A DNA stretch of 52,156 nucleotides, taken from the NCBI GenBank assembly GCA_023261595.1, contig JAHFOQ010000002.1:1-52156 (forward strand), in the 5' to 3' direction. The DNA comes from a bacterium (GTDB lineage Bacteria > Patescibacteriota > Saccharimonadia > CAILAD01 > BJGX01). Position 1 is the first letter of the stretch. Every line of letters starts with the position of its first letter. The position numbers and the translations under genes are program-made. The notes beneath the pieces were generated by a model. The model searched no databases. It had not been told where the DNA came from and saw only the letters and a list, made by a program, of their open reading frames with translations. This document shows positions 590-32,178 of the stretch, in pieces.

Positions 590-1461
590 GAGACACCGCC
601 GGCTAAATGAGATCGATCAGGCAAAAATCGGCCTCTGGTTTGTTAGCGCGATCCAAAGCAATTTGGATCGAACTGTGGTTTCAATATGACGTGTGTTGAG
701 GTGGACCAATCGGCACGTTAACACACAACCCTTAGGATGGTGCCGACTGTCCTTTGTGGTAATATGTACCTAACCCGCAAGCGTTTCGGGTTCTACAACG
801 GTTTGGCCTTACCGCAACTCGCTACTCATCATTAAAAAACTTGCACCCATCACCAATCAGCGAGAGAAAAAGCAAACGCTCCTCGACACCCGGATAATCC
901 GCCAACCGGCGGACGGGGTAATTGGTTATCGAAACAAGTGTGGTGTGTGCTTCGGCGCCCAGCGACATTGGGAAAAGCACCGCAAACTAGCTCGACGGTT
1001 TAAGCCCAGCCGATACCATCCAAGGTTAATGGGATTAGATACCCCGGCAACCAAGGTAAAGAAATGGGTACGTGGATTGTGGATCTGCAAAGACAGCCAG
1101 GACTAAGGCTTAGAAGCAGCCTAAGGTTGAAAGAGTGCGTAACAGCTCACTGGCCGAGTAAGTCCGCGCCACCGCACATAGATGTCTTGGCGGTGCCGGA
1201 GACGTGCGCCGAATTGGCTTTAGGGCCCACCATGCATCAACTCCACTGCCAGCAGCCGCGGTAACAGTAGTGTAGGGTGGAGGGCTGTGCCAAGCAGCTT
1301 GCCACCATATTCTGCCTTGGCCCGTGCGCAAGCACCACGCTGAAAGGGCAGAAAACTAATAGCGGCAGGATGAAGGCCTTCGGGCTGTAAACTGCAACAA
1401 CGCCGGTGTGGCGGACAGAGACGGATTCCGACCCCGTTTCTGTCCGCCCTCCGGTTTTTTT
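590..1461 (+). ncRNA. large GC-rich structured non-coding RNA candidate carrying rRNA-like segments (unclassified)
   Basis: About 55% GC against about 35-40% in the flanks. It is bounded by the promoter at 575-583 and the terminator at 1403-1461. It contains only short, overlapping ORFs without RBS. Structure signals: a GCAA-tetraloop hairpin at 649-670, UUCG hairpins at 947-958 and 1375-1386, and pseudoknot topology at 691-746. rRNA-like blocks lie at 1031-1047, 1091-1169, 1247-1264 and 1372-1391. Confidence 0.6.
1403..1461 (+). terminator. strong intrinsic terminator ending the GC-rich transcript
   Basis: GGCGGACAGAGACGG (1410-1424) pairs with CCGTTTCTGTCCGCC (1434-1448). The stem is extended by CCGG 1403-1406 pairing with CCGG 1451-1454. 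T7 follows immediately at 1455-1461. Confidence 0.75.
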
Positions 1462-1513: not shown

Positions 1514-3667
1514 ATGAGCAAAATACTCGATGACCTTAACGAGCAACAACACCAAGCAGTACTCGCAATCGAAGGGCCAGTACTTATGCTGGCGGGCGCG
1601 GGTTCGGGTAAAACCAAAACCCTTACTCACCGCTTAGGATATTTAGTACAAGAAAAAAAGGTTAGTCCTGCTAATATATTGGCAGTTACATTTACTAACA
1701 AAGCAGCCGGAGAAATGCGTCGTCGGGTTGCTCGTTTATTACGCTTTGATGAAAATAATTCTCAATACCTGCCGTTTTTAGGTACTTTTCATTCTATTGC
1801 CAATAGAATTCTCCGTCGTGAAGCCGCTGAGATTGGATACAGTAGCAACTTTCTTATTTACGATATGTCAGATAGTCAGTCGCTGATAAAAAAAATCCTT
1901 AAGCAACTTAAAATTGATGAAAAACAAATAACACCAAGTGGAATTAGCAATGCAATTTCGAGCGCAAAAAATGAACTTGTAGGTCCAGACGAATATAAAA
2001 CTTTTGCCACTGGAAGAGTACAAGAAGCAGCAGCACAAGTATATCCCGTTTATCAGCGCGAACTTCGCAAGGCTGGAGCAATGGATTTTGACGATCTTAT
2101 TATGAAACTTACTCTCTTGCTTATAGAAAATGAAACAATTAGAGAAAAATATCAAAAACAGTTTGAATACATTCTGGTAGATGAGTATCAAGATACCAAC
2201 CAGGCACAGTATCAAATGGTTAAATTACTTGCTCAAAAGCATCATAATATTTGTGTTGTAGGAGATGACTGGCAAAGTATTTATTCTTGGCGCGGAGCAA
2301 ATTACGAAAATATTTTAAACTTCGAAAAGGATTATCCAGAAGCAAAAGTAATAAAATTAGAACGTAATTATCGCAGTACACAAAATATTTTAGATGCTGC
2401 CCATGCTGTTATTACACGCAATACATCACGATCAGAAAAGAATCTATGGACCGAGCAAGGTGCAGGAGAACAAATACATATTGTAGGAGTTCGAGACGAA
2501 CTCGACGAAGGGCGATTTGTGATAGAAACGATTAAAAACCTACAAAAACAGGATAGTAGATTAGGATTACACGACTTTGCTATTTTGTATCGCACGAATG
2601 CCCAAAGTCGTAGCTTAGAAGAAGCCTTTTTGCGTTATGGCGTACCGTATCAAATTATTGGTGGTGTACGTTTTTATGAAAGGAAAGAAATAAAAGATGT
2701 GTTGGCATATTTACGATATATTTATCAACCCAACGATGCAGTGAGCCTTGCACGAATTATTAATGTGCCCGCACGGGCTTTAGGACAAAAATCGCTCAGT
2801 GTGTTTTATGATCATGCAGCAAAATACGAACTACCATTGCTCGAAGCCATGGCTCAAGCCGGTCAAATTGATGGGTTAAGTGCACGAGCTAGCGCTAGTT
2901 TGGTGGAATTCGGAGCTATGATAACGAGCTTGGGAGAACTGAGTAAAACTGTTCCCGTGAGTGAATTTATCGATGCGGTGCTAAAACGCAGTGGGTATTT
3001 AGAATATTTAAATGACGGAAGTTTGAGCGCAGAAGAACGTGTTGAAAACGTACGCGAGCTTATCTCTGTTGCGAAAGCATATGACACGACTGGTCTAGAT
3101 GAGTTTTTGTCTGAGATATCCTTAATTGCAGATGTTGATAGCCTAAAGAACGGTGGCGAAGCAGTTGTTATGATGACACTTCATTCTGCCAAGGGCTTAG
3201 AATTCAATACTGTTTTTATCTGTGGTATGGAAGAAGGAATTTTTCCTCATAGTAGAACATTTTTTGAACCAAGCGAATTAGAAGAAGAACGGAGGCTTTG
3301 TTACGTAGGAATGACTCGCGCCAAAGAACGACTTTTCTTGTTACATGCCCATGGTAGATTATTATATGGCACAACCCAACATAACGTGCCATCTCGTTTT
3401 CTGAGTGAGATACCAGATAATTTGGTTGTGCATGACAGTAAAAATACTATCGCAAGTATGCAGTCTCAACATTCGGTTCAAACGGAATATAGTGATGATT
3501 CGTTTATGCCAGATCTGCCTAGCTTAACCTCTGGTGATAGAGTAATGCACGAAAGTTGGGGTGAAGGCGAAGTAATAAATGCGGGTGAATATGAAATTAC
3601 GGTAAAATTTGCGAGTGTAGGGCAAAAAACGCTTAATCTCAACTTTGCTCCACTAAAAAAATTATAG
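1514..3667 (+). CDS. pcrA: ATP-dependent DNA helicase PcrA/UvrD family
   Basis: 717 aa. Walker A AGAGSGKT, DEYQDT, and the VGDDWQSIYSWRGA, RNYRST, YRTN, TLHSAKGLEF and LCYVGMTRAK motifs. TACAAT at 1502-1507 lies 6 nt before the ATG, so the gene looks leaderless. Confidence 0.92.
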   Translation: MSKILDDLNEQQHQAVLAIEGPVLMLAGAGSGKTKTLTHRLGYLVQEKKVSPANILAVTFTNKAAGEMRRRVARLLRFDENNSQYLPFLGTFHSIANRILRREAAEIGYSSNFLIYDMSDSQSLIKKILKQLKIDEKQITPSGISNAISSAKNELVGPDEYKTFATGRVQEAAAQVYPVYQRELRKAGAMDFDDLIMKLTLLLIENETIREKYQKQFEYILVDEYQDTNQAQYQMVKLLAQKHHNICVVGDDWQSIYSWRGANYENILNFEKDYPEAKVIKLERNYRSTQNILDAAHAVITRNTSRSEKNLWTEQGAGEQIHIVGVRDELDEGRFVIETIKNLQKQDSRLGLHDFAILYRTNAQSRSLEEAFLRYGVPYQIIGGVRFYERKEIKDVLAYLRYIYQPNDAVSLARIINVPARALGQKSLSVFYDHAAKYELPLLEAMAQAGQIDGLSARASASLVEFGAMITSLGELSKTVPVSEFIDAVLKRSGYLEYLNDGSLSAEERVENVRELISVAKAYDTTGLDEFLSEISLIADVDSLKNGGEAVVMMTLHSAKGLEFNTVFICGMEEGIFPHSRTFFEPSELEEERRLCYVGMTRAKERLFLLHAHGRLLYGTTQHNVPSRFLSEIPDNLVVHDSKNTIASMQSQHSVQTEYSDDSFMPDLPSLTSGDRVMHESWGEGEVINAGEYEITVKFASVGQKTLNLNFAPLKKL

Positions 3668-13525: not shown

Positions 13526-14401
13526 ATGAATACGAGCGAAGTACATAATAATAGAAATGTTCAAACGGGTAAGATTGATTCTCCCAATCCAGCTGTATTA
13601 GTCAAAGAGCTACAAACTATTACTAATGCCTCGGCTCAAGAAAAAAATGAAAAAGCCGAAACAAAGCGGCAGGAAGAAACTTTTAGCACTAAACAAGAAG
13701 AACAATCTTCTGTCTTAGAATTTCAACAATTACTTATTGATGAATTTAACCAATTGGGTAATGGTATTGACCGATACGTGTGGATGCAAAGAGAAATAGA
13801 AGGGCAAATTCGTACCATGCTTCATTTGGTTGATGCTCAGCACGATAAAGATAGTCAAGTAGATCGTATGGTTGCTTCAGTTGCTCGCGATATCGCAGAG
13901 CAAACAATAAGTGAAGATCCGCAAGGTAATATTGCTCGTACCGGGTATAACAAACAGTTCGATATAGAAATTGAACAACTTTCGGAATCTTATAAAAGAC
14001 GATTAGTTGAAATCAATGCAGAACTCGAAAGAGCAGAGGCTGAAGGTAACGCCGGCAAGAAAGCACAAATTGTACATGAAGCCATTCGTAATGTACTAGA
14101 ACATGTACTAAGTTTTATACATTCAACCCATGAAGAAATGATTCGGATATTACGATCACAACGAGATGTAATTATTAGTGAGATAAATCGTTTTCAGGAA
14201 CTGCAGTATTTTAAAACAGAAGAAGTTTGGCAGAATACAACATACCGCTTGTTAAGTGAGTATAGTCAAAAAGCTCTCATAACACTCGAAACAATAATCG
14301 GTAAGCTAAAAATTCAAGCTGAAGGAGAAGAAAGACAGATTGCTTCTCTCGCAAAAGAATCTGTTTTACTCACCCGAACACTTACTGAAGAACAGGAATA
14401 G
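13526..14401 (+). CDS. hypothetical acidic coiled-coil protein
   Basis: ORF track gives 13508..14401. The ATG at 13526 lies 6 nt after TATAAT (13514-13519). The sequence is E/Q/K-rich with no recognisable domain. Confidence 0.5.
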   Translation: MNTSEVHNNRNVQTGKIDSPNPAVLVKELQTITNASAQEKNEKAETKRQEETFSTKQEEQSSVLEFQQLLIDEFNQLGNGIDRYVWMQREIEGQIRTMLHLVDAQHDKDSQVDRMVASVARDIAEQTISEDPQGNIARTGYNKQFDIEIEQLSESYKRRLVEINAELERAEAEGNAGKKAQIVHEAIRNVLEHVLSFIHSTHEEMIRILRSQRDVIISEINRFQELQYFKTEEVWQNTTYRLLSEYSQKALITLETIIGKLKIQAEGEERQIASLAKESVLLTRTLTEEQE

Positions 14402-14402
14402 T

Positions 14403-15065
14403 ATGAAGAAAAAAGAAGATTTGCATACCGAAAAAAGTCAGGGCAAGACAGTTGCCATTGTTTTGCTTGTGCTATGTATTTTTCTTTCGCTTATGCTCAG
14501 TTTTTTAGCCTTTAGTTCGCGTGCTCACGTGCTCACTGAATTGAAAGAGTCAGATAATCAATTGCAAATTTCACGTAATGTAAATGCTCAGTTGCAAACT
14601 CAGATAGAAACTATGCGCACGGCTAACAATAATGCACAATATATTCTGATTAGTGATATGGGGGTACGAATACCAAAAACTGCTGATCTTCAAAACGTTG
14701 TGGTAGGTATCGAAACAGTCGCAAACCCCAAACAACCATTTGCACATTTTACGAGTGGGGAAATTTTAGCCGCGGTAATGAGTAACCCTGCCGGACCATA
14801 CAGTAGCAACCAATGTGCATTAGGCGATAGTCCCCTTGGAGTTATTACACGCTATAGTTCTGGCAGTGTAGTATCTGGTAAAAAGGTTGAAACTATTACC
14901 GATACAAATGTTAAGAAGATTGGTGACTACTATTACGTTTATACAAATTCAGCCACTTCGTGCACGAGTAATAAGGTAGTTTCTGACTATATTACTGCTC
15001 AACAACAAAAATTTGCTTCTGCCTTTGCTAGTCTAGAAGCTATTACTACATCTACAATTAATTAA
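14403..15065 (+). CDS. membrane-anchored coiled-coil protein, paralog 1 of 3
   Basis: The ATG at 14403 follows the upstream stop directly. It has an N-terminal TM helix, a coiled coil, and an ectodomain with the conserved C…SPLGVITR and YYYVYT…SC motifs shared with the next two genes. Confidence 0.55.
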   Translation: MKKKEDLHTEKSQGKTVAIVLLVLCIFLSLMLSFLAFSSRAHVLTELKESDNQLQISRNVNAQLQTQIETMRTANNNAQYILISDMGVRIPKTADLQNVVVGIETVANPKQPFAHFTSGEILAAVMSNPAGPYSSNQCALGDSPLGVITRYSSGSVVSGKKVETITDTNVKKIGDYYYVYTNSATSCTSNKVVSDYITAQQQKFASAFASLEAITTSTIN

Positions 15066-15112
15066 CGACGTGGTATAATAAGCACAAGAATTAAACAGGA
15101 AACCATATACAA

Positions 15113-15799
15113 ATGGAACCCCAACAAGTACATCCACAATCATCTCCGCTCGAGCCAACATCACAAATGCCAGAATCAAACCCAATGCCAGCCAAGAAAG
15201 GTGGAAAGGGTTGGATGATCGTAGCGATTTTAGCAATAGTTTTACTTATTGCAACTCTTGCTTTTGGTTATTACAAGTGGCAGGCGTACCGCACAAAAGT
15301 AGGAGACTTGGGCGCACAGGTAAATGCTTTGCAAGCGCAAGTTGATACACTTACCACAGCTGCGGCTTCTACCACCATCTTAAAAATAAATGAATTTGGT
15401 GTACAAATGACCAAACCAGCCGATGCAAAAGACGCCTATTACTATATTTCAAAAAATGCAGAAGGCAATCAAGTTGCTTCATTTACTTCTCCAGGGCTAC
15501 AGAACTTAGCAGCTACCAATCCATCGAGCCCAGCTGTGAGTAACGCTTGTGGTTTAAATAGTGCACCACTTGGAACGATCACTCAAGTAAAAGCAGGAAC
15601 CCTTATAAAGGGCGTAAAAGTAGAAGATGTTAAGAGTACCGATACTTTAATTGTAAAAAAACAAGATGTTTCTTATTACATCTATACAGCACCAGCTACT
15701 CAATGTTCTACGGTAAAAACAGTACAAGATTTGCAAGCAAAGCAAGCCAAATCATTGCAAGAAACTTTTAACACTAGCCTAGCAGCGCTTGCCAAATAG
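15113..15799 (+). CDS. membrane-anchored coiled-coil protein, paralog 2 of 3
   Basis: 228 aa with the same architecture. Motifs CGLNSAPLGTITQ and YYIYTAPATQC. Confidence 0.55.
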   Translation: MEPQQVHPQSSPLEPTSQMPESNPMPAKKGGKGWMIVAILAIVLLIATLAFGYYKWQAYRTKVGDLGAQVNALQAQVDTLTTAAASTTILKINEFGVQMTKPADAKDAYYYISKNAEGNQVASFTSPGLQNLAATNPSSPAVSNACGLNSAPLGTITQVKAGTLIKGVKVEDVKSTDTLIVKKQDVSYYIYTAPATQCSTVKTVQDLQAKQAKSLQETFNTSLAALAK

Positions 15800-15809
15800 G
15801 TAATGACAA

Positions 15810-16472
15810 ATGAAAGACAAAAATACACAATCAACAGTTCATCAGTCGTCAGCGGATCATATTCAGCTTCCTAAAAGAGATCGAGCTAAAACAGTATGGA
15901 TGATAGTAGCCATCGTAGCAATTATTGCATTTGTTGGTTTAGCTACCTTTGGTTATTACAAAATTACTAATTTGAATAAACAGATTAAAGAACAGCAAAC
16001 ACAAATAACTGAGCTGAGTAATACTAAGAAGACACTAGAGGATGCAGCCAGTGCAGCTGCAGCTTCTGCAGTTAATGCTACGGCTAGTGCAATAGCAAAT
16101 TCTAACAACTTTGTCGAAGTTAAGGAGCTCGGGTTTAAATTGCCGGTAACTGATGAAATTAAAGACCTACAGTACTTTGTAAATGATAAGACAGTATTCT
16201 TTTCTTCAAAATCATTAATGAGTAGTGCATGGGCAGCTGACAAGGGAAATGCTGCAAAGTATTGTGCCCCTGGGGTACTTCCGTTCGGTGCAATAACTCG
16301 CTTTGCTAATACTACTGAAGCCGGTCCAACCCAGCAGAAAAATCTTGGTACATTTATACTTGGCTATGCACCACCTCAATCATATTGTTCGGACAATGCA
16401 GCAACTACAACTTTGCAAAACAAACAAAAGGCAGCTTTGCTGAATGCCTTTAATAATGCTCAAAAACTATAG
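15810..16472 (+). CDS. membrane-anchored coiled-coil protein, paralog 3 of 3
   Basis: 220 aa with the same architecture. Motifs CAPGVLPFGAITR and LGYAPPQSYC. Confidence 0.55.
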   Translation: MKDKNTQSTVHQSSADHIQLPKRDRAKTVWMIVAIVAIIAFVGLATFGYYKITNLNKQIKEQQTQITELSNTKKTLEDAASAAAASAVNATASAIANSNNFVEVKELGFKLPVTDEIKDLQYFVNDKTVFFSSKSLMSSAWAADKGNAAKYCAPGVLPFGAITRFANTTEAGPTQQKNLGTFILGYAPPQSYCSDNAATTTLQNKQKAALLNAFNNAQKL

Positions 16473-16521: not shown

Positions 16522-18345
16522 ATGACAACATCTGAGATTCGTTCTAAATTCTTAGAATTCTTTAAAGAAAAAGATCACCAAATAATTCCATCTGCACCTG
16601 TGGTACCCGAACATGACCCTACGGTATTGTTTACTACCGCCGGAATGCATCCACTGGTTCCATATCTGCTCGGAACGCCACATCCACAAGGTAAACGACT
16701 TGCCGATGCACAGAAATGTGTACGTACTACTGATATCGAAGAGGTGGGAGATGCAACACATCTAACTTTTTTTGAAATGCTGGGTAACTGGAGCTTGGGT
16801 GATTATTTTAAAGAAGATTCTATTGCATGGAGTTGGGAATTTTTAACTGACTCGCGTTGGCTTGGAATAGATCCACAAAAATTATATGTAACGGTCTACG
16901 AAGGCGATGGTGTAGTGCCAAAAGACGAAGAGTCTATTGCGCTGTGGCAAGAACAATTTGCAAAAGTAGAAATTAATGCAAAAGAAGGCGAAAGAATACT
17001 GGCATTAGGCAAAAATGATAACTGGTGGGAACAAGGCGGAGTAGCTACCGGCCCTGCCGGCCCAGATACCGAGATATTTTATTACATTGGTAACGAACAG
17101 AACCCTAAGTTCGACACAGAAAATAATAAATTTGTAGAAATTTGGAATAATGTCTTTATGGCATACCAACGCCAAGAGGACGGGAGCTATACTGAGCTCA
17201 AAAATAAAAATGTTGATACTGGAATGGGACTCGAGCGAGCAAGTTTTACATTGCAAGGTTTACATAGTGTGTATGACACAGATATGTTAAACCAAATAAA
17301 GTCGGCAGTAGCACACTATGCACACGAAGTACGAGAACCAACTTTTATTGCTACCCAGCCCGACACAACCGAAAGAGCCGAAAGAATAATCACTGACCAT
17401 ACCAGAACTGTTACCTTTATGGCTGCAGACGGTGTAGTGCCGAGCAATAAAGACCAGGGGTATGTAATGCGTCGCTTGGCTCGTCGTGCTATTCGCGAAG
17501 CACTTGTGCTGGGAATTCAACATGATCTCTTTGCTCGTATTGTTCCGCGTGTAATAGCATTGTATGAAGATGAATATCCAGAGCTTGGTACAAATCAAAT
17601 TCAAATTATGGAAGTTCTACTGCGCGAAGAAAATGCTTTTCGTCAAACCCTCGTAAAAGGATTGAAAGAGTTTGAAAAACTTTTGGGTGATAAAGAAAAT
17701 CTGAGTGGGCATACTGCCTTTACTCTCTACGATACATATGGATTCCCAAAAGAACTAAGTCTAGAAGAAGCTAAAAGGATTAATCTGCCAGTAAGTAACT
17801 TATTCGAAGCTGAGTTTGAGCAACAATTAGATGCGCAACGTCAACGAAGCCGAACAGCTACATCCGGACAGTTTAAGGGTGGTTTGGCAGATGATAGTGA
17901 AATTGCAACTCGATATCATACTGCAACTCATTTAATGTATAAAGCCTTGCGCAATGTACTGGGAGATCACGTAATGCAACGGGGTAGTAATATTACCGCC
18001 GAACGCATGAGATTTGATTTTTCGCATCACGAAAAAATGACACCCGAGCAGATTGAACAAGTAGAAGATATGGTAAATGCACAAATTACCAAAGATTTGC
18101 CAGTAAGTTTTACCGAGATGCAAAAAGACAAGGCTTTCGAAGCCGGAGCACTTGGTGCTTTTGGTGAAAAATATCCAGATATTGTAAAGGTGTATACCGT
18201 TGGTGATCCAGAAGGGGATTATTACTCTAAAGAAATTTGTGGCGGACCGCATGTGAGTAAAACTTCAGAAATTGGCACATTTACAATTATCAAAGAAGAA
18301 TCCAGCTCGGCCGGAGTACGGCGCATAAAGGCTACAATAAAATAG
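16522..18345 (+). CDS. alaS: alanyl-tRNA synthetase, truncated form lacking the C-Ala domain
   Basis: 607 aa. Catalytic core (FTTAGMHP, FFEMLGNWSLGDYFK, EIWNNVFM, DTGMGLER) and editing domain (HTATHLMYKALR, CGGPHV). It ends at …GVRRIKATIK, where the C-Ala domain would normally begin. An extended -10 TGATATAAT ends 7 nt before the ATG. Confidence 0.92.
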   Translation: MTTSEIRSKFLEFFKEKDHQIIPSAPVVPEHDPTVLFTTAGMHPLVPYLLGTPHPQGKRLADAQKCVRTTDIEEVGDATHLTFFEMLGNWSLGDYFKEDSIAWSWEFLTDSRWLGIDPQKLYVTVYEGDGVVPKDEESIALWQEQFAKVEINAKEGERILALGKNDNWWEQGGVATGPAGPDTEIFYYIGNEQNPKFDTENNKFVEIWNNVFMAYQRQEDGSYTELKNKNVDTGMGLERASFTLQGLHSVYDTDMLNQIKSAVAHYAHEVREPTFIATQPDTTERAERIITDHTRTVTFMAADGVVPSNKDQGYVMRRLARRAIREALVLGIQHDLFARIVPRVIALYEDEYPELGTNQIQIMEVLLREENAFRQTLVKGLKEFEKLLGDKENLSGHTAFTLYDTYGFPKELSLEEAKRINLPVSNLFEAEFEQQLDAQRQRSRTATSGQFKGGLADDSEIATRYHTATHLMYKALRNVLGDHVMQRGSNITAERMRFDFSHHEKMTPEQIEQVEDMVNAQITKDLPVSFTEMQKDKAFEAGALGAFGEKYPDIVKVYTVGDPEGDYYSKEICGGPHVSKTSEIGTFTIIKEESSSAGVRRIKATIK

Positions 18346-18354
18346 AAAAGTGAA

Positions 18355-18378
18355 GAGCCCCTGCAGGTGCAGGGGCTC
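18355..18378. terminator. GC-rich hairpin between convergent alaS and the high-GC gene
   Basis: GAGCCCCTGCA-GG-TGCAGGGGCTC. On the minus strand it is followed by the T-rich TTCACTTTTCTATTTT. Confidence 0.5.
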
Positions 18379-18411
18379 GGGGTTTACGCCACGCGGGCGT
18401 TTGGGTTGGCG

Positions 18412-18873
18412 TCAGCCGCCGAGGGGGAGTCCGAACTGGAGTCCCTCTGTGCTGACGCAGGTGGCAGGGGCCGAATCCTGCTTGTCGAAGGGAACTGCCT
18501 GGAAGGCCGCGATTCCGAACGACTGTCCGTCGGGGCTGACCAGGACCGGAGCGGTGCAGCGCTTCTGCGCGGCCTCGCCCTGGGTCCAGGTTGCCACGAG
18601 CTGATCGCCGGACCAGACGACGCTCATCGACTTGAGCTCGGGGACACCTTGTCCCTTCATCGTGTCGTTGAAGCGAGCCCGGAGGACTGCCTCGGCCTTG
18701 CTGCGCGTCTCCTCGGGGTGCGAGGTGTCCCGCTGGGACATGACGAGGAGCGCGATGCCCACCAGCGCGATGGCGATGGCGAACCAGATCCAGGCGAGGC
18801 TGATGCCGCGCGTGGGCTGGTCGGTGTCGTTGTCCGGCGACTCGACGGACGGCTTGTTCTGGGTGGCGGTCAT
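18412..18873 (-). CDS. bitopic membrane protein encoded by a high-GC island; diverged homolog of the adjacent 19064..19654 gene
   Basis: 153 aa. RBS GAAAGGA lies 7 nt upstream of the ATG. One TM helix (ISLAWIWFAIAIALVGIALLVM). The ectodomain aligns with the neighbour at SMSV, RCT.PV, PD.Q, VP.DK.D and CV[ST][ST], including a conserved Cys pair. About 65-70% GC. Confidence 0.65.
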   Translation of the reverse strand: MTATQNKPSVESPDNDTDQPTRGISLAWIWFAIAIALVGIALLVMSQRDTSHPEETRSKAEAVLRARFNDTMKGQGVPELKSMSVVWSGDQLVATWTQGEAAQKRCTAPVLVSPDGQSFGIAAFQAVPFDKQDSAPATCVSTEGLQFGLPLGG

Positions 18874-18917
18874 AGGACCGTCCTTTCTGTTTGGTGCGGG
18901 TACGAACTAACACAAGC

Positions 18918-18946
18918 ATAGTAGCACAGATTTATATTTAAGTCAA
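18918..18946 (-). promoter_or_regulatory. near-consensus sigma-70 promoter driving the high-GC gene
   Basis: On the minus strand: TTGACT (18946-18941), a 17-nt spacer, then TACTAT (18923-18918). It sits in AT-rich backbone just outside the island. Confidence 0.55.
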
Positions 18947-19026
18947 TACTTTTTGACAGTTATTTATATATTAAAACCAGGTTAAATTTTATATAAATAC
19001 GAATAATAGAAAAAATATATTAACAA

Positions 19027-19056
19027 AATAAAAACCCCTACGCCGATAACGTAGGG
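19027..19056 (-). terminator. intrinsic terminator of the 19064..19654 gene
   Basis: On the minus strand: CCCTACG-TTATCGG-CGTAGGG followed by GTTTTTATTTTG. Confidence 0.65.
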
Positions 19057-19063
19057 TAAATAA

Positions 19064-19654
19064 TTATGACGTTGTTGTTTCACCGAGTCTATCTGGGGAA
19101 ATCGATGTTACACATTTGTACAAAGTAGTATCGAGTTTATCGACAGGCACAGGTTCGATCTTAGGTGTCCAGTACAAGTAATGTTGTTTATCTGGTGGGT
19201 TAACTGGTACCGTACAGCGTGCATTTCCCTGATAAAAACTTAGTACAAGCTTTTTGTAATCAACATACGATACTGACATGCTATCAACGTTGAGTTGATT
19301 GTTAGCAGGCAGATTCCGATTAATCTCAATAGCCGAACTCTTCAGTTCGCGCTCAGCTGTAGTCCGCACGTTCTCTCTATCGTGAGCGTCAGAAATAAAG
19401 AGAAAAATTACCGTAATGATACCAACAAATATCAAACTAGCAACAACCCAAGCCATAGTAGACCTAAAAGATCGCTTAGGCAGATTGCTTTTTACAGCTT
19501 CAGAAGAAGTTATGGAATTAGAAGAGTTTTCAAAATCACGTTCTTCGGCATGTTTGCGCGCAGACTCTCGTTCTTCATCAGTAAGCACACGACCGCGCGC
19601 TGCCGCACCGTGTTCTCTTACTTTACCAATTTGCTGGTCAGTAGGCATGTGCAT
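19064..19654 (-). CDS. bitopic membrane protein (low-GC paralog of 18412..18873)
   Basis: 196 aa. A ~65-aa cytoplasmic N-terminus is followed by a TM helix (MAWVVASLIFVGIITVIFLFI) and an ectodomain with a Cys pair (RCTVPV … KCVTS). Confidence 0.6.
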   Translation of the reverse strand: MHMPTDQQIGKVREHGAAARGRVLTDEERESARKHAEERDFENSSNSITSSEAVKSNLPKRSFRSTMAWVVASLIFVGIITVIFLFISDAHDRENVRTTAERELKSSAIEINRNLPANNQLNVDSMSVSYVDYKKLVLSFYQGNARCTVPVNPPDKQHYLYWTPKIEPVPVDKLDTTLYKCVTSISPDRLGETTTS

Positions 19655-19725
19655 CCTTCGAATTGTAGGGTGCTACTCCGCCCGAATATATTAGTATAAA
19701 TCTATTGTGATGTCAATTTAATTAT

Positions 19726-21006
19726 CTATACAGAAAGAGTACGGCTCAGACGTTGAAGAATATTTTCGCCGACAGAATCACTACCTACAATATCTAACCC
19801 TAAATTTGCCAATCCCATTGGTGTAATATCTTGAGGTGATGTAAGTTCTCCAGTACTGTCAATTACTCTGTTAACCTCTTTTGGCTTTACAAAATCTACG
19901 GTTGGTTTGCGCGTAAAAGGCAATCCTTTGTACCAATTTTCATGAGTGAGTGCGGCTTTAATTTCAGGTAAGGCAGAACCGCCACCACACAAGAGTATTC
20001 TGTTAGGCAGGTGCTCTAGCGTATCAAACTCACCTAATGCTAATTCCACTCCACTAATCCAAGTTTCAGCATCATTCTTAAGCGCCTCGCTCACTTCTTT
20101 TTCTTTCTTTTCATCGAGCTTACCTGCCGAGTGATCTAGTTTGAGCTTCTCGGCAGAATCAAACGTTACCCCAAGAGTCGAAGCAATTCGTTTGGTAAAA
20201 CTGCGTCCACCAATGGCAAACATTTGTGTACCCTCAACTCCACCATTGTTTACGACGGCAATGTCACTGGTTCCACCACCAATGTCGATAAAAATAGCTG
20301 AAAACTCAGTACTGTCGTCTGCTCCAACACTTTTTGCAACTGCAAATGGCTCGGCAGCAATGTTAACTAAGTTTAGGTCTAAGTCTGCTGCTACTGTTTG
20401 TAGGGCACCTAAATGTACCATAGGTGCAAAGGCATTAAATATTTGAATCGTTACATCTTTACCCTGAAACCCAACTGGATTTGTTACACGGTAGCCATCA
20501 ATATGAACATCTACTACTGCTGCATTTACGAGCTTTACTTCGAGCTCTTTTTTACCTGTTTCCCACATAAGTTGTTTGCGCACTTCTTCGTACGCTTGCT
20601 TTTGAATGCGCCCTATAATGTCCATCATCTCAGCTTGATCTATTTTTACATCAGGTCTGGCTCGGCGATAACTTACACTTGTTGTTCCGCCCTTTACGAG
20701 TTCACCAGCAATACCGAGTACGGCATCTTTGGCGACCACTTCGGCCATTTCTTCAGCCCTACGCAAGGCGGCATCGCAGTTTTCTACCACACCGGCAATA
20801 TCGGTTACCGCACCACCTGCCATATCAGTAAGTCGTTGGCGTTGACGACCCACACCAATAACTTCAACTACTTGGTATGTTTTACCCGCAGAGTCAGTAT
20901 TGTCTCGAACTTGTCCGATTAAAGCCTTGGCATACTCAGTACCAATATCGAGTGCTACAAGATATTGGCCAGACTTTTTCTTTTTTGTAAGTAATGGAAT
21001 TTTCAT
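19726..21006 (-). CDS. actin-like ATPase of the FtsA/PilM family
   Basis: 426 aa. Phosphate-1 ALDIGTEYAK, phosphate-2 FIDIGGGTSDIAV, adenosine motif LCGGGSALP. The length fits FtsA, but no ftsZ lies nearby. Confidence 0.7.
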   Translation of the reverse strand: MKIPLLTKKKKSGQYLVALDIGTEYAKALIGQVRDNTDSAGKTYQVVEVIGVGRQRQRLTDMAGGAVTDIAGVVENCDAALRRAEEMAEVVAKDAVLGIAGELVKGGTTSVSYRRARPDVKIDQAEMMDIIGRIQKQAYEEVRKQLMWETGKKELEVKLVNAAVVDVHIDGYRVTNPVGFQGKDVTIQIFNAFAPMVHLGALQTVAADLDLNLVNIAAEPFAVAKSVGADDSTEFSAIFIDIGGGTSDIAVVNNGGVEGTQMFAIGGRSFTKRIASTLGVTFDSAEKLKLDHSAGKLDEKKEKEVSEALKNDAETWISGVELALGEFDTLEHLPNRILLCGGGSALPEIKAALTHENWYKGLPFTRKPTVDFVKPKEVNRVIDSTGELTSPQDITPMGLANLGLDIVGSDSVGENILQRLSRTLSV

Positions 21007-29260: not shown

Positions 29261-29336
29261 GGGGCATTGGCGCAGTTGGTAGCGCGCATCCATGGCATGG
29301 ATGAGGTCATCGGTTCGAACCCGATATGCTCCACCA
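29261..29336 (+). tRNA. tRNA-Ala (anticodon GGC), CCA encoded
   Basis: Manual cloverleaf. Acceptor GGGGCAT/ATGCTCC contains the G3:U70 alanine identity pair. Anticodon stem CATCC/GGATG with loop ATGGCAT. T-arm ATCGG-TTCGAAC-CCGAT. 3' end ACCA. Confidence 0.9.
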
Positions 29337-30149: not shown

Positions 30150-31982
30150 ATGCTTACAGAAGCAATTGCGCTGGCGCTCAAATACGGCACATACGTTTTT
30201 GATGAACATAGCATTATCGATAGAGAGAATGCAATATTTTGTTTTGATGATGGTGATTTTACTCCAAACTATTCACGCAAAGATTTTGCTGCTTCAGAAG
30301 TATCAGTACTTGATACGTTGAATCAAAATTTTCAAGCTTTAACGCCACAAGAGTTGCAACATAGAAGTCTTGGCCCGCACTATATGAGCACACTCTTAGG
30401 TACTATGCACCGAAAAGATGCATTGCGTAGAGCACGTAAACAAACATTCTTACCAGTACAACCTGAATGGGAACAGAGAGAAGTGGAATATGAGCTTACT
30501 CTGTTAGGAACGTGGCTGATGCGAGAAGCTCAACGTAGTTTGCCATTCGGTTGTGTAGAAGCAGCGATTGGCTTTAGCCAGAAAAGCTTAAAGGAGCGAG
30601 AAGATAGAATTAAGGTTGTTTTTGAGCAACTTAAGTGTAGTAATTGGTATACACTCAATGAGTATCGTGCCAAAAATTTTGCACAAGAAATGCGACATAA
30701 TTCGCTTGAAGTACTACCTCGTCAGTACGGCCAGTACCCTTCGAGCCTTGTAAGGCCAAATTGCTTAGGTATTAGTGCGATGCTCTGTGGCTGGTGCGAA
30801 TTGGCCGGTGTGGAATATATGTATGTTAATACCGTTCGAGATAGAAGCAGTACCCTCGCTGAGATGTTTGTAGAGACCATAAAACATTCTATTGAGTGGT
30901 GCACAGAAAACGAAATTACTATTCCAGAAATGGATCTGTTTGCAATGCAATCTCAGTTAGAAGAGTTTAAAACTCCGTATACAGCAAACAGTTTTCATCA
31001 CTGTGTAGCGGTAAAGATGGCAGACGATTATTGGTTAATGCTCGATCCATACCAAGAAATATTGTTACCAATCTCGCCCGTGAATCATGGAAGTGGAGAA
31101 ACTATCGATGAAACCTTTAGGCTTCTCACGAGAATGGCAAAACCTTTACCTGGAATAGTATTGCAATATGAATCAGAAGATTACGAAGCAATTCGAGGAC
31201 CGGCAGAAAGTCACTTAAGGGATAGTTTTATGTCTGCTGTTGATGCAAAACTCTATATAAAGTATTTTGGCGATGAACCAAATAGGTTATTCGGTGCAAT
31301 TTATGTTGCTCTAGAAAATGGATGGTTTAGTAGTTTTTGGGGTGATAATTGGGAGTCGTGTGGTGTCTCGAGTAGCCACCTAACATTTCCAAATAAAAAT
31401 CGAAAAATTAACCAAAGAACTTTTTATGATTGTATGTATGGTTGGGTTGGGGCATCAATACTGAACCTAACCACAGAATATCGGTTTTCAAGTATTGAGA
31501 AATTGAAGGCCTATTATTCTCAAAATGATGGTTTTGCCTATAGATTTAGAGAATTGTTTCAGGTTCTACCAATTATTCAACTTGTGCATAAGATGCAAAA
31601 GTATGCATACGATGATAAATCGAAATATAATCATTTTGTGGTTGAATTTGGTAATCCTGCCTTTCAGTTAGCATGTAATACACTCAATCATCTCTCAGCT
31701 TGGGATGTTGAGTTTTCTGAATTGATCGATCCATTTGATATTGCGAAGTTTAGTGGGAGTCAATTAATCTGGCACGATGCGCTCGCTAGATGGTATAATA
31801 CTGACCAGCCTCAGTTAGACCCTGAGTGGGAAGCATACCTCACCTCTCAGCTAAGTAAACTACATATGTACCAATGGCATTTCCAAACCCGGCAAATGCT
31901 TACCCATCCCGACCAGGAGGAACCCAACGATGCCGAGAATGACAAAGGAACAGAAGGCAGCAGAGATCAAGAAGCTGCGTGA
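30150..31982 (+). CDS. hypothetical 610-aa protein with a possible transglutaminase/papain-like Cys-His-Asp core
   Basis: RBS AAAGGAG lies upstream of the ATG. Candidate triad: NCLGISAMLCGW … FHHCVAVKMADDYWLMLDP. The last ~25 codons lie inside a GC-rich island. Confidence 0.55.
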   Translation: MLTEAIALALKYGTYVFDEHSIIDRENAIFCFDDGDFTPNYSRKDFAASEVSVLDTLNQNFQALTPQELQHRSLGPHYMSTLLGTMHRKDALRRARKQTFLPVQPEWEQREVEYELTLLGTWLMREAQRSLPFGCVEAAIGFSQKSLKEREDRIKVVFEQLKCSNWYTLNEYRAKNFAQEMRHNSLEVLPRQYGQYPSSLVRPNCLGISAMLCGWCELAGVEYMYVNTVRDRSSTLAEMFVETIKHSIEWCTENEITIPEMDLFAMQSQLEEFKTPYTANSFHHCVAVKMADDYWLMLDPYQEILLPISPVNHGSGETIDETFRLLTRMAKPLPGIVLQYESEDYEAIRGPAESHLRDSFMSAVDAKLYIKYFGDEPNRLFGAIYVALENGWFSSFWGDNWESCGVSSSHLTFPNKNRKINQRTFYDCMYGWVGASILNLTTEYRFSSIEKLKAYYSQNDGFAYRFRELFQVLPIIQLVHKMQKYAYDDKSKYNHFVVEFGNPAFQLACNTLNHLSAWDVEFSELIDPFDIAKFSGSQLIWHDALARWYNTDQPQLDPEWEAYLTSQLSKLHMYQWHFQTRQMLTHPDQEEPNDAENDKGTEGSRDQEAA

Positions 31983-32178
31983 GAGCGGCATGAGTGATGC
32001 TGACATCATCGCTGAGAACGGCAACCTGCAAGCCGGCTTCGTCTGGCTGAAGGAGAACCCAGGCAGCGACGCCAAGGCAGAGAAGCCCAAGCAGCCGGTT
32101 GGTTCTGGATCGATGCCGGCAACCCCGCAACCCGCCAAGAGCTACGCCGCGGAGTTCCGCACCCCCACGCTCACGTAG
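31930..32178 (+). CDS. small hypothetical protein encoded by a GC-rich island (possible HTH)
   Basis: 82 aa. A perfect SD AGGAGG lies 8 nt upstream of the ATG. About 60-68% GC. It overlaps the end of the 610-aa ORF by 53 nt. SGMSDADIIAENGNLQAGFVWLKE is helix-turn-helix-like and the tail is P/A-rich. Confidence 0.45.
   Translation: MPRMTKEQKAAEIKKLRESGMSDADIIAENGNLQAGFVWLKENPGSDAKAEKPKQPVGSGSMPATPQPAKSYAAEFRTPTLT

Follow-up and report, generated by a model that had tools for sequence, protein, structure and literature searches.

A single GC-rich gene in an AT-rich Saccharibacteria genome: family, synteny and candidate explanations

It is common practice to treat atypical base composition as proof that a gene arrived recently by horizontal transfer. 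A locus in a Saccharibacteria contig (JAHFOQ010000002.1) puts this habit in question: how does a single gene of 0.67 GC come to lie between AT-rich neighbours, and what has kept its composition so different from theirs? The window considered here is the whole stretch of DNA that was analysed, 52,156 nt in length. The initial annotation regarded the gene as a xenolog that came from a high-GC organism, or was exchanged with one, and was set down beside its native counterpart. The analysis described below upholds the anatomy given in that annotation and leads to another view of the gene's origin. Although the gene is extremely anomalous in composition, it is old, keeps its synteny and is confined to one lineage, and its composition has outlasted neutral amelioration. 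Literature searches returned no earlier account of the gene, nor of any GC-island gene in Saccharibacteria.

The GC-rich block and its transcription signals

The reported block of very high GC in AT-rich DNA is confirmed by windowed GC. Positions 18346-18900 have 65-68% GC, compared with a mean of 39.5% for the 52-kb window. In 200-nt windows, GC is 0.62-0.675 across 18300-18899 and 0.29-0.48 on either side, while in 150-nt windows (mean 0.395, SD 0.059) the block lies about 4.7 SD from the window mean. It is one of only three patches above 0.55 GC in the 52 kb. Other single-gene GC islands are known at 31930-32178 of the window and in L009 and L012, where a Cys-rich gene of 109-115 aa forms one. 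All features discussed below are listed here in coordinate order, with the evidence for each in brackets.

16522-18345, plus strand: alaS, a syntenic anchor (ORF; Pfam tRNA-synt_2c on the orthologous genes of L001 and L003)
18336-18378, minus strand: predicted intrinsic terminator of the GC-rich gene, a 10-bp GC-rich stem at 18355-18378 followed by TTCACTTTTCTATTTTATT (terminator scan; perfect inverted repeat)
18386-18400, minus strand: small putative 3'UTR hairpin, ACGCC-loop-GGCGT as read on the minus strand (3'UTR sequences and their alignment)
18412-18873, minus strand: GC-rich coding sequence for a 153-aa bitopic membrane protein (ORF; GC 0.67, GC3 0.88)
18874-18910, minus strand: predicted 5'UTR of roughly 40-45 nt, GC 0.51 (sequence)
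18881-18885, minus strand: Shine-Dalgarno AAGGA, 7 nt from the ATG (sequence)
18918-18946, minus strand: putative sigma-70-type promoter, TTGACT-17-TACTAT, with TG upstream of the -10 (consensus scan)
19036-19056, minus strand: predicted terminator of the AT-rich paralog, a 9-bp stem followed by GTTTTTATTT (terminator scan)
19064-19654, minus strand: AT-rich paralog, 196 aa (194 aa from the second ATG), GC3 0.34 (BLASTP, hhalign)
19688-19716, minus strand: promoter-like site of the AT-rich paralog, TTGACA-17-TAATAT (consensus scan, 10/12 matches)
19726-21006, minus strand: ftsA-like actin-fold ATPase gene, a syntenic anchor (NCBIfam TIGR01174 ftsA, E 1e-29, below the curated cut-off)

The block coincides with one gene. 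Across the GC-rich loci, GC is 0.21-0.43 in upstream intergenic DNA, 0.44-0.58 in the 5'UTR, 0.63-0.70 in the coding sequence, 0.55-0.70 in the 3'UTR and 0.38-0.46 downstream. The plateau ends within tens of bases of the coding sequence and terminator and does not spill into the end of alaS, where the last 150-300 nt have a GC3 of 0.30-0.32 (0.31 for the whole gene). All codon positions differ between the two genes: GC1/GC2/GC3 is 0.63/0.51/0.88 in the GC-rich gene versus 0.56/0.37/0.31 in alaS, which places GC3 about 55 points above that of the flanking genes (0.88 vs 0.31). This anomaly is extreme and extends to codon usage.

The minus-strand frame at 18412-18873 was said to be coding and to have a ribosome-binding site, and both points hold. 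Comparison of its last 60 codons with four relatives gave differences at codon positions 1/2/3 of 0/1/15, 4/2/19, 3/2/11 and 2/3/16, a third-position-dominated pattern showing that the frame is truly coding. An antisense or alternative-frame gene was ruled out. Every one of the synonymous shuffles (100%) retained a stop-free antisense frame, which makes the long ORFs seen on the opposite strand and in the remaining frames by-products of composition. Separately, the public gene call for L010 had chosen the wrong strand.

Based on its sequence signals, the GC-rich block appears to form one complete transcription unit, with a promoter, a 5'UTR, the coding sequence and two 3' hairpins. The proposed promoter, which lies in intergenic DNA of 22% GC, was recovered by the consensus scan and is conserved: TTGAC(T/A)-17-TAnnAT is found upstream of every ortholog examined, as well as upstream of distant family members in other contexts. 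A 5'UTR motif, ...accaaaca(g/t)agaaagg..., is shared by close relatives. At the other end, the GC-rich hairpin proposed to end the gene was also found by the terminator scan and is shared by orthologs, where one U-A pair is replaced by a compensatory C-G. The smaller hairpin is kept in orthologs with changes on both sides of its stem (ACGCC/GGCGT in the window's clade, GTGCC/GGCAC in L009 and L012), although RNAalifold pairs this region differently. As the predicted terminator abuts the alaS stop codon (18343-18345), the GC-rich gene and alaS converge.

The AT-rich neighbour was described as a separate transcription unit, and the predicted terminator between the two genes, together with a promoter for each, supports this. 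Its terminator is present in the scan, but at 19036-19056 rather than at the earlier bounds of 19027-19056.

The encoded protein, its paralog and their family

The GC-rich gene encodes a protein with a cytoplasmic N-terminal tail of 25 aa, a TM helix at residues 26-46 and an ectodomain of about 100 aa. An AlphaFold2 model of the 153-aa protein agrees with the single TM helix and ectodomain previously proposed, and gives the ectodomain an alpha/beta fold (pLDDT 76 overall, 85-93 in the ectodomain). Residues C106 and C139 are invariant among 37 family members, and the ectodomain is probably disulfide-bonded. As modelled, the protein is a Saccharibacteria-specific, N-in/C-out single-pass membrane protein with a small alpha/beta ectodomain. 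Scans of both paralogs and two orthologs against Pfam, NCBIfam and PHROGs gave nothing above threshold and only weak, TM-driven matches. A sequence-profile search of the PDB found no relevant match, and Foldseek of the model against PDB and BFVD found none at E <= 0.001.

Homology between the GC-rich protein and its AT-rich neighbour, as previously claimed, is well supported. A pairwise BLASTP comparison gave 28% identity over 133 aa (E 4e-11), while hhalign of the two subfamily alignments gave a probability of 97.5% and an E-value of 7.9e-12 over 102 columns. All five sequence motifs quoted as common to the two proteins are present, as are both Cys residues, which are invariant across the family of the two paralogs together with a helix motif, R-x-x-AE-x-x-L. 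The AT-rich paralog is longer at its N-terminus, where a cytoplasmic domain of about 65 aa that the GC-rich protein lacks bears a conserved motif (LTDEERExARxHxExRDFG) and precedes the TM helix and the homologous ectodomain.

In a neighbour-joining tree, which has no support values, the AT-rich subfamily (P0016-19, P0025, P0029, P0035-37 and P0041) stands apart from the subfamily that holds the GC-rich genes. Both subfamilies occur in one taxon, with every nameable carrier belonging to Saccharibacteria or Patescibacteria. On this sequence evidence, the GC-rich gene is best read as an ancient paralog of its AT-rich neighbour and not as a recent foreign copy.

The family is narrowly distributed. 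A profile search of 1.84 billion representative proteins found 30 matching clusters, and a second search of 5.8 billion clusters found 31 matches, every named one from Saccharibacteria or Patescibacteria. The named carriers are Saccharibacteria or Patescibacteria contigs; the remaining carriers are AT-rich or, in L022, of mixed GC. A scan of genome contigs with a single peptide pattern found two loci and a metagenome scan found three. No homolog outside Patescibacteria was found in the collections searched, which sample rare actinobacterial and mobile-element genes non-exhaustively. Likewise, tblastn against 50,697 phage and 72,556 plasmid records and a scan of IMG/VR viral contigs gave no family match.

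Persistence of the GC-rich composition and its possible origins

If the gene were a xenolog, patchy presence in sister genomes would be expected. Instead, all related contigs recovered (L001, L003, L004-L008 and L009-L013) carry it, either in the ftsA-like/alaS locus or next to it. The ftsA-like gene and alaS enclose it in L001, L003, L004-L008 and L010-L011, and in L009 and L012 it adjoins the ftsA-like gene; this ftsA-like gene also flanks the family in L001, L003, L009-L012 and L018. The same locus is occupied in at least 10 other assemblies, with promoter, 5'UTR and terminator conserved. For example, a 797-kb Saccharibacteria contig has an identical arrangement of ftsA-like gene, GC-rich gene and alaS. 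Among the loci recovered, the GC-rich gene is the more broadly conserved occupant of this position, and the AT-rich paralog is found there in the window's close relatives only.

The compositional anomaly is shared as well. All syntenic orthologs are GC islands, with GC 0.63-0.69 and GC3 0.77-0.92 versus a flank GC3 of 0.31-0.59, in backgrounds of 40-52% GC. The GC-richness tracks the gene and not the locus: P0026 (in an L21/FtsW/IleRS context) and P0020 (in an Lnt/HxlR/ADH/Pif1 context), both 42-45% identical, have GC3 values of 0.92 and 0.91 where the flanks have 0.35-0.50. In the neighbour-joining tree, the strongly GC-rich genes form one crown clade (coding sequences of 63-69% GC, GC3 0.72-0.92). 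Basal members have a lower GC3, namely 0.50 in P0031, which shares the WhiB/alaS neighbourhood, 0.47 in P0022 and 0.69 in P0028. The existence of low-GC members such as P0022 and P0031 indicates that the function of the protein needs no high GC.

This composition has been retained for longer than neutral decay would allow. Four-fold sites in the flanks are saturated (identity 0.27-0.35). When calibrated on alaS plus ftsA, a two-state model of amelioration predicts that, even from a start at 100% GC, four-fold GC should now be 0.46-0.59, or no more than 0.55-0.71 at the 5% bound. The observed values are 0.71-0.77 in the window and 0.83-0.91 in the others, L009 having 0.88-0.91, so GC retention exceeds neutral amelioration even from that extreme start. 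Synonymous turnover has meanwhile stayed largely within G and C: of 46 invariant four-fold columns compared between the window and L009, 16 are the same, 15 differ by G<->C and 15 involve A or T.

As relatives share the GC anomaly and no outside donor is detectable, the locus resembles a long-kept GC island rather than a recent import. The reading that we prefer, at about even chances, is that of a native paralog, passed on vertically, in which a force confined to the gene keeps the coding sequence GC-rich; the most plausible such force is selection on the mRNA or coding sequence. The crown clade would then have been kept GC-rich through long vertical descent, even after relocation to other contexts. 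Recent transfer, regional mutation bias and recombination effects fit less well than such a gene-confined bias.

The alternative that survives best, although we consider it unlikely, is recurrent or recent import, in which the coding sequence is repeatedly replaced by homologous recombination, with the conserved promoter/UTR and terminator as arms. The source would be an unsampled high-GC reservoir (an actinobacterial host, its phages or plasmids) where the family diversifies, and each copy would be young and unameliorated. This adapts the idea of the initial annotation to the conserved synteny. This would account for a composition and codon usage like those of a ~66% GC genome and opposite to those of the resident genome: the RSCU of the gene correlates negatively with that of the genome (r = -0.57), and 52% of its codons are the genome's rarest synonymous codon. 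It also fits the corrected synonymous divergence between the window and close relatives, which amounts to about one half of the flank value (four-fold identity 0.68 in the GC-rich gene, 0.47 in alaS), and the presence of GC-rich copies in several genomic contexts.

Several observations speak against import, and with it against the initial annotation's xenolog. In the collections searched, neither a copy in a high-GC context nor a homolog from outside Patescibacteria was found, and in nearly all of the roughly 20 loci with DNA available AT-rich flanks directly abut the gene, the exception being the mixed-GC contig L022. Conservation extends from the gene to its AT-rich promoter and 5'UTR. Across the clade, the divergence of the gene parallels that of its flanks. 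No direct repeats lie within 18100-19200. The borders, formed by alaS on one side and the paralog on the other, carry no mobility genes, and no tRNA lies closer than those at 29261 and 47906. An analysis of TM7x also found no strong signal of host-derived genes (PMC7427843). Of the traits expected of a xenolog, deviating composition and codon usage are present, while donor homologs, patchiness, insertion signatures and amelioration are not. A recent xenolog is further disfavoured by divergence that tracks the flanks and by synonymous turnover that stays G/C.

One further point raised in favour of import concerns WhiB. Proteins of this family are typical of Actinobacteria and their phages, and mildly GC-enriched WhiB genes lie near the family in L001, L003 and L018. 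WhiB is absent from the window, L009 and L012, and was therefore rejected as a linked marker of host-derived DNA.

Somewhat less probable again is a scenario in which, long ago and at the origin of the crown clade, the gene was acquired a single time or went through a high-GC genome and back, with slow neutral amelioration ever since that is still incomplete. The single origin of GC-richness on the tree, with basal members of normal GC, is consistent with this, as is the lower four-fold GC of the window copy compared with L009. On terminal branches, third-position substitutions from S to W outnumber those from W to S (60 vs 16), suggesting that the island may be decaying slowly and is not at equilibrium. 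However, the same method distorts flank counts about 2-fold depending on the outgroup, so that these parsimony-polarised counts cannot be relied on. Slow neutral decay is further opposed by the saturation of flank synonymous sites across the clade, by the gap between the predicted 0.46-0.59 and the observed 0.71-0.91, and by the 42-45% identical members elsewhere that still have a GC3 of 0.91-0.92. The GC3 of the gene also does not follow background GC3 across loci.

GC-biased gene conversion at a recombination hotspot, or mutation that is locally biased in some other way, is improbable as the cause. All three codon positions and the 3'UTR are affected, as would be expected under a non-selective bias, and Saccharibacteria are naturally competent. 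Recombining bacterial genes do tend to have a higher GC3, but the reported gene-scale effect is slight (R2 0.03-0.09 in S. pyogenes) and nowhere near a rise from 0.31 to 0.88 (PMC4450053). In addition, the plateau stops within tens of bases and leaves the last 150 nt of alaS untouched, and the GC-richness follows the gene to other loci. A transcription-linked form of such a bias is unlikely because the gene for ribosomal protein S16 has a GC3 of 0.22.

Very improbable, and more speculative, is the idea that the coding sequence is written in the codon dialect of a high-GC actinobacterial host and that its mRNA or DNA is used in that host, or that it is a single-gene isochore. In the first variant, modelled on a translocated receptor that the epibiont would supply itself, the host would translate the gene into a membrane-anchored ectodomain that serves as the docking partner for the epibiont's AT-encoded paralog. 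In the more modest variant, the gene would be the first documented bacterial single-gene isochore, kept by gene-specific selection over hundreds of millions of generations.

Finally, an assembly chimera or non-coding GC-rich filler, for which nothing speaks beyond the sharp change in composition, can practically be dismissed: more than 15 independent assemblies from different samples, including the 797-kb contig, show these junctions, and the segment has the substitution pattern of coding sequence and a confidently predicted fold.

Candidate forces and likeness to known systems

What could hold a native paralog GC-rich? Because the plateau covers the coding sequence and 3' hairpins without leaking into the neighbours, a fixation bias confined to the gene is most likely. 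Our leading guess is selection, either for an mRNA of unusual stability and structure or for decoding by the minor set of G/C-ending codons. The minimum free energy (MFE) of 7 of 8 GC-rich orthologs lies below that of synonymous-codon shuffles (z -2.0 to -5.0), whereas two low-GC family members have z values of 0.2 and -0.6. These low free energies, together with the conserved 3' hairpins, give a hint of selection at the RNA level. However, the AT-rich paralog also has a z of -2.0, and RNAalifold shows no net covariation (a covariation term of +1.4 kcal/mol) and detects no conserved mRNA structure apart from the terminator, the one element that is clearly conserved. These two results leave the RNA-structure idea weak.

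As to decoding, ordinary expression-linked codon bias was rejected, given the low GC3 of the S16 gene and a codon usage that is anticorrelated with that of the genome. Any reading based on maintenance must also face several objections, one being the low-GC family members described above. The GC1/GC2/GC3 values of the gene are those of a gene at equilibrium in a genome of ~66% GC, and these values, together with a shifted amino-acid composition, are what a stay in a high-GC genome would produce. Furthermore, we estimate that keeping GC3 near 0.9 against AT-biased mutation needs a per-site scaled advantage of about 3, which is large for reduced-genome epibionts.

The GC-rich protein is probably an abundant envelope or host-interface protein, and possibly works with the adjacent ftsA-like ATPase. 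That a probably abundant surface protein and its paralog adjoin an ftsA-like gene is of interest as the host-attachment machinery of these organisms is largely unknown. If the preferred reading of a native paralog kept GC-rich is true, composition-based calls of horizontal transfer in Patescibacteria need caution, and an unrecognised force can hold one bacterial gene GC-rich inside an AT-rich genome. Candidates for this force include selection acting on how stable the mRNA is or how it is decoded, a donor pool that has stayed hidden and a link to the high-GC hosts of these epibionts.

In architecture, the GC-rich protein resembles tandem paralogous bitopic envelope proteins of Gram-positive-type bacteria, such as the actinobacterial Rv1733c and Rv0361 membrane-protein families and membrane-anchored anti-sigma factors, which share its order of short cytoplasmic tail, single TM helix, juxtamembrane helix and small extracytoplasmic domain. 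Weak HMM matches were obtained to an anti-sigma model (NF052375, E 5e-5) and, with P0010, to Rv1733c (NF050032, E 6e-4). Identity as an anti-sigma factor was rejected, since the NF052375 match reaches 23.4 bits against a cut-off of 100, covers only the tail and TM helix and includes no anti-sigma domain. Membership of the Rv1733c or Rv0361 families was also rejected: the orthologs P0010 and P0014 score 15-20 bits against 80 and 11-14 against 37, and the window protein is unmatched. The model further recalls NTF2-like and VirB8-like domains, in which a long helix comes after the TM anchor and packs against a curved antiparallel sheet. Foldseek comparisons with AtzH, YybH and the VirB8-like OrfG are not significant (E 0.45-1.8, TM-scores 0.22-0.35), and this resemblance of the predicted fold may serve as a lead only.

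In composition, two known systems invite comparison. Compositionally atypical, horizontally acquired genes are reportedly covered by the amelioration framework of Lawrence and Ochman. Like islets of recent acquisition, the locus has a composition far off that of the resident genome and consists of a single gene with its own promoter and terminator. Unlike them, the GC-rich gene sits at the same locus in all relatives recovered, has neither donor homologs in the collections searched nor mobility signatures at its borders, and keeps its composition through saturating synonymous divergence. GC-biased gene conversion offers the second parallel, as there too a non-mutational force raises GC3 against AT-biased mutation (Lassalle et al. 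2015, PMC4450053). That process, however, has a small statistical effect across genes, whereas here a single coding sequence is raised by about 55 GC3 points, with boundaries at the gene ends.

The GC-rich gene and its AT-rich paralog

Mean GC content across the window is 39.5% (150-nt windows: mean 0.395, SD 0.059), rising to 0.62-0.675 at approximately 18346-18900, with 0.29-0.44 on both sides. This block is bordered by the alaS stop codon on one side and, on the other, by an AT-rich intergenic stretch preceding a 196-aa ORF.

Features around the GC-rich block (promoters and terminators located by consensus scan)
16522-18345, +, alaS; its stop codon borders the block
18378-18355, terminator of the GC-rich gene: 10-bp GC-rich hairpin and T-tract
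18412-18873, -, ORF of the GC-rich gene, 153 aa
18946-18918, promoter of the GC-rich gene: TTGACT-17-TACTAT, with TG before the -10
19056-19036, hairpin terminator of the upstream AT-rich neighbour
19064-19654, -, 196-aa ORF of the AT-rich neighbour (the AT-rich paralog)
19716-19688, promoter-like site of the AT-rich neighbour: TTGACA-17-TAATAT
19726-21006, -, ftsA-like gene (NCBIfam ftsA, E 1e-29, under the curated cut-off)

The initial annotation had described the GC block, its ORF, the transcription signals and the homology between the two neighbours, and these observations were confirmed in full. The 18412-18873 frame is coding, as seen from third-position-dominated differences in the last 60 codons against four relatives (positions 1/2/3: 0/1/15, 4/2/19, 3/2/11 and 2/3/16), conservation of the protein across approximately 30 clusters, and a confident AlphaFold2 model (pLDDT 76 overall, 85-93 in the ectodomain) in which a transmembrane helix (26-46) and a second helix (53-72) are accompanied by four to five strands and a short helix. 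The other frames and the + strand also hold long ORFs, which were rejected as by-products of composition, since all 1000 of 1000 synonymous shuffles kept the antisense frame stop-free. As high GC at third codon positions (GC3) keeps that frame open, databases probably miss or misannotate members of this family. In contig L010, public annotation has a 180-aa protein on the wrong strand, opposite the true GC-rich gene (2763-3305, -, versus 2733-3293, +). The ortholog P0015 (L001, 244-732) overlaps the next ORF and loses family similarity over its final ~14 residues, where …ATDTTAFARRFAAW replaces …GLDYGLPMGK; this divergent end could reflect a sequencing error in the MAG or a frameshift.

Each neighbour has its own promoter-like site and terminator, and the two are therefore separate transcription units. 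The orthologs, too, have a recognisable promoter, a ~45-nt 5'UTR with AGAAAGG, a small hairpin on the 3' side and a terminator. Compensatory changes occur in the terminator hairpin (U-A to C-G) and in the small hairpin (ACGCC/GGCGT to GTGCC/GGCAC), the latter read from the alignment by eye, in a stretch that RNAalifold pairs differently. The two proteins are true homologs: BLASTP gave 28% identity over 133 residues (E 4e-11, single comparison), and profile-profile comparison of the two subfamily alignments gave 97.5% probability (E 7.9e-12, 102 columns). Their joint alignment holds an invariant juxtamembrane helix motif, QG, both cysteines and VP.

Distribution of the family and its loci

The family is small and uncharacterised, and every member found lies on a Patescibacteria contig or on an unassigned AT-rich one. 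When 5.8 billion clusters were searched from word seeds, the GC-rich protein as query returned 15 proteins and the AT-rich paralog four. An HMM search with a joint profile, run exhaustively over 1.84 billion representatives, gave only 30 matches, and a further profile search, over the 5.8 billion clusters, gave 31. The only organism names on any family match were Candidatus Saccharibacteria and Patescibacteria group. Neither tblastn (50,697 phage records, 72,556 plasmids) nor an IMG/VR scan produced a family match, and there was no significant match to family proteins in Pfam, NCBIfam, PHROGs, PDB sequences or either Foldseek search. No actinobacterial donor of the GC-rich gene was found in the collections searched.

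DNA around family members was taken from more than 15 independent contigs. The ortholog lies between the ftsA-like gene and alaS in L001, L003, L004-L008 and L010-L011, with WhiB genes and a 60-aa membrane protein present or absent on the ftsA-like side, and adjoins the ftsA-like gene in L009 and L012. This presence across sister contigs speaks against the proposed foreign acquisition. The arrangement in L011, a 797-kb Saccharibacteria contig, is exactly that of the window (CDP-alcohol phosphatidyltransferase, ftsA-like gene, AT-rich paralog, GC-rich gene, alaS). In all contigs with this locus the gene has 63-69% GC and GC3 0.77-0.92, against GC3 0.31-0.59 in neighbour genes.

Two more distant members (42-45% identity) occupy unrelated contexts: P0026 between L21 and FtsW/IleRS, and P0020 among Lnt, HxlR, NUDIX, ADH and Pif1 genes. 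Both are sharp GC islands (GC3 0.92 and 0.91, respectively; flanks 0.35-0.50), each with a strong promoter and terminator. Enrichment is only slight in other members: P0031, from the same WhiB/alaS neighbourhood, has GC3 0.50 and GC 0.48 (remaining contig 0.39), P0022 has GC3 0.47 and P0028 has GC3 0.69. In a neighbour-joining tree of the ectodomain, which carries no support values, these three are basal, the strongly GC-rich genes form one crown clade, and the AT-rich neighbour falls in the family's other primary branch. From this sampling it follows that the two neighbours are an ancient paralog pair, that the GC-rich gene is the widely conserved occupant of the ftsA-like/alaS locus, and that GC-richness had a single origin and was then retained.

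Genes of the WhiB family (Pfam PF02467), a group characteristic of Actinobacteria and their phages, sit beside the family gene in L001 (2959-3213), L003 (5317-5870) and L018 (4531-4809) and are mildly GC-enriched (0.60 versus ~0.50). They are absent from the locus in the window, L009 and L012.

Limits and persistence of the GC island

GC content by segment across eleven loci
Upstream intergenic DNA: 0.21-0.43
5'UTR: 0.44-0.58
CDS, first 150 nt: 0.63-0.70
CDS, rest: 0.64-0.69
60 nt past the stop codon (two hairpins): 0.55-0.70
DNA beyond the terminator: 0.38-0.46

GC3 is 0.32 over the final 150 nt of alaS, so the island does not spill over, and no direct repeats were found flanking the block. 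Codon usage of the GC-rich gene correlates negatively with that of 19 long window genes (r -0.57; AT-rich paralog +0.54), and the G/C shift spans all degeneracy classes (AAG, GAG, CAG, NNC). A translational optimum was ruled out: the gene uses the genome's rarest synonymous codon in 52% of cases and its commonest in 6%, and the S16 gene has GC3 0.22.

It is about an even call, in our judgement, that this is a native, inherited paralog whose CDS is held GC-rich by a gene-confined force. With the alternatives considered below each argued against, the remaining candidate is a force confined to the transcript or CDS, which would be selection on RNA or decoding. The weakest link is mRNA stability or decoding as the target of selection. 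Folding results are no more than suggestive of an RNA-level effect: the native sequence was more stable than synonymous-codon shuffles in 7/8 GC-rich orthologs (z -2.0 to -5.0), with +0.2 and -0.6 for two low-GC family members, but the AT-rich paralog also gave -2.0, and RNAalifold found no conserved structure except the terminator (covariation term +1.4); both results count against such an effect.

Among the alternatives, an unsampled donor pool is a possible causal force, through repeated, precise replacement of the gene from high-GC sources; no sign of such a pool was found.

Alternatively, the gene may simply not yet have ameliorated. At four-fold sites of alaS and ftsA, the window is only 27-35% identical to L009, L003 and L001, indicating saturation, and identity to L010 is only 0.37 although the ftsA protein is 98% identical. 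Turnover in the gene itself was read from invariant four-fold codons in all ten orthologs, where third bases are scrambled but mostly still G or C; between the window and L009, 16/46 shared sites are identical, 15/46 are G<->C and 15/46 involve A or T. A flank-calibrated two-state (S, G/C; W, A/T) relaxation model gave (u+v)T of 2.1 to >3 (5% lower bounds 1.6-2.8). From a 100% GC ancestor, neutral decay would leave 0.46-0.59 today (conservative bound, maximum 0.55-0.71), below the four-fold GC observed, which is 0.71-0.77 for the window lineage and 0.83-0.91 for the others. The crown clade is much older than the splits used. Parsimony on terminal branches counted 60 S>W against 16 W>S third-position changes, an excess that would fit slow decay or mutation-selection balance, but the same procedure distorts flank counts ~2-fold through outgroup composition; the excess is kept among the points against the favoured reading. 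Flank saturation and the model contradict neutral non-amelioration.

Were a regional mutation or conversion bias the cause, the GC signal would be expected to extend diffusely past the gene borders and not to accompany the gene to other loci. A recent or host-derived origin, part of the xenolog interpretation in the initial annotation, is not supported (no donor, patchiness, insertion signatures or amelioration), while the homology and the separate promoter-driven unit stand; the GC anomaly, taken there as a foreign mark, recurs in GC-rich orthologs of related loci and persists beyond neutral amelioration.

Other GC-rich stretches were seen. At 31930-32178 (+), a second small gene (82 aa, GC 0.61, GC3 0.77 versus window mean 0.33) has its own RBS and downstream hairpin terminator, overlaps the end of a 610-aa ORF (30150-31982) and has no Pfam or phage match, so single-gene GC islands are not unique to the gene studied here. 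Directly 3' of the ftsA-like gene in L009 (5786-6133) and L012 (5225-5554), a GC-rich unit (0.60-0.66, background ~0.45) with its own TTGACT...TATAGT promoter and GC hairpin terminator encodes a Cys-rich 109-115-aa protein (CxxC...C), without Pfam or phage match or counterpart in the window. The stretch at 851-1475, upstream of a UvrD/PcrA-like helicase gene, reaches GC 0.61, especially at 1075-1170 (+), with no credible ORF. There, an isolated 96-nt match to positions 1071-1165 of the bacterial 23S rRNA model passes the Rfam gathering threshold with 67-73 bits; 851-1475 showed neither an rRNA operon nor a tmRNA or RNase P. Possible readings are a stray fragment of rRNA, a mimic of this part of it, or a structured RNA that has not been recognised as such.

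Predicted role and comparison with known systems

The GC-rich gene's protein is predicted to have an N-in/C-out topology and a small ectodomain, probably stabilised by two invariant cysteines. The promoter, which is strong and conserved, and the Shine-Dalgarno sequence suggest that the protein is abundant. Recurrent adjacency to the ftsA-like ATPase gene, together with the conserved 65-aa cytoplasmic domain of the AT-rich paralog, points to a putative envelope role linked to that ATPase. A run of three tandem paralogous ORFs lies upstream of alaS, at 14340-16472 (+) (also L011, 8242-9592). Their products combine a transmembrane helix at the N-terminus with a coiled coil and a two-cysteine domain at the C-terminus; Pfam matches are weak only, and this looks like a further lineage-specific envelope-protein array.

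Saccharibacteria genomes are reported to have 32-51% GC, with no strong signal of host-derived genes in TM7x (PMC7427843). GC-biased gene conversion in bacteria gives a slight gene-scale correlation (PMC4450053). In the literature, no report was found of a single bacterial gene kept far above genome GC over the long term. The GC-rich gene could pass for a textbook islet from horizontal transfer, but of the five tests that define one it fails four, namely those on donor homologs, patchiness, insertion signatures and amelioration. We rate it as a compositional island, of a known kind but with an unexplained maintenance mechanism, in which the surprise is the persistence of the GC anomaly rather than the anomaly itself.
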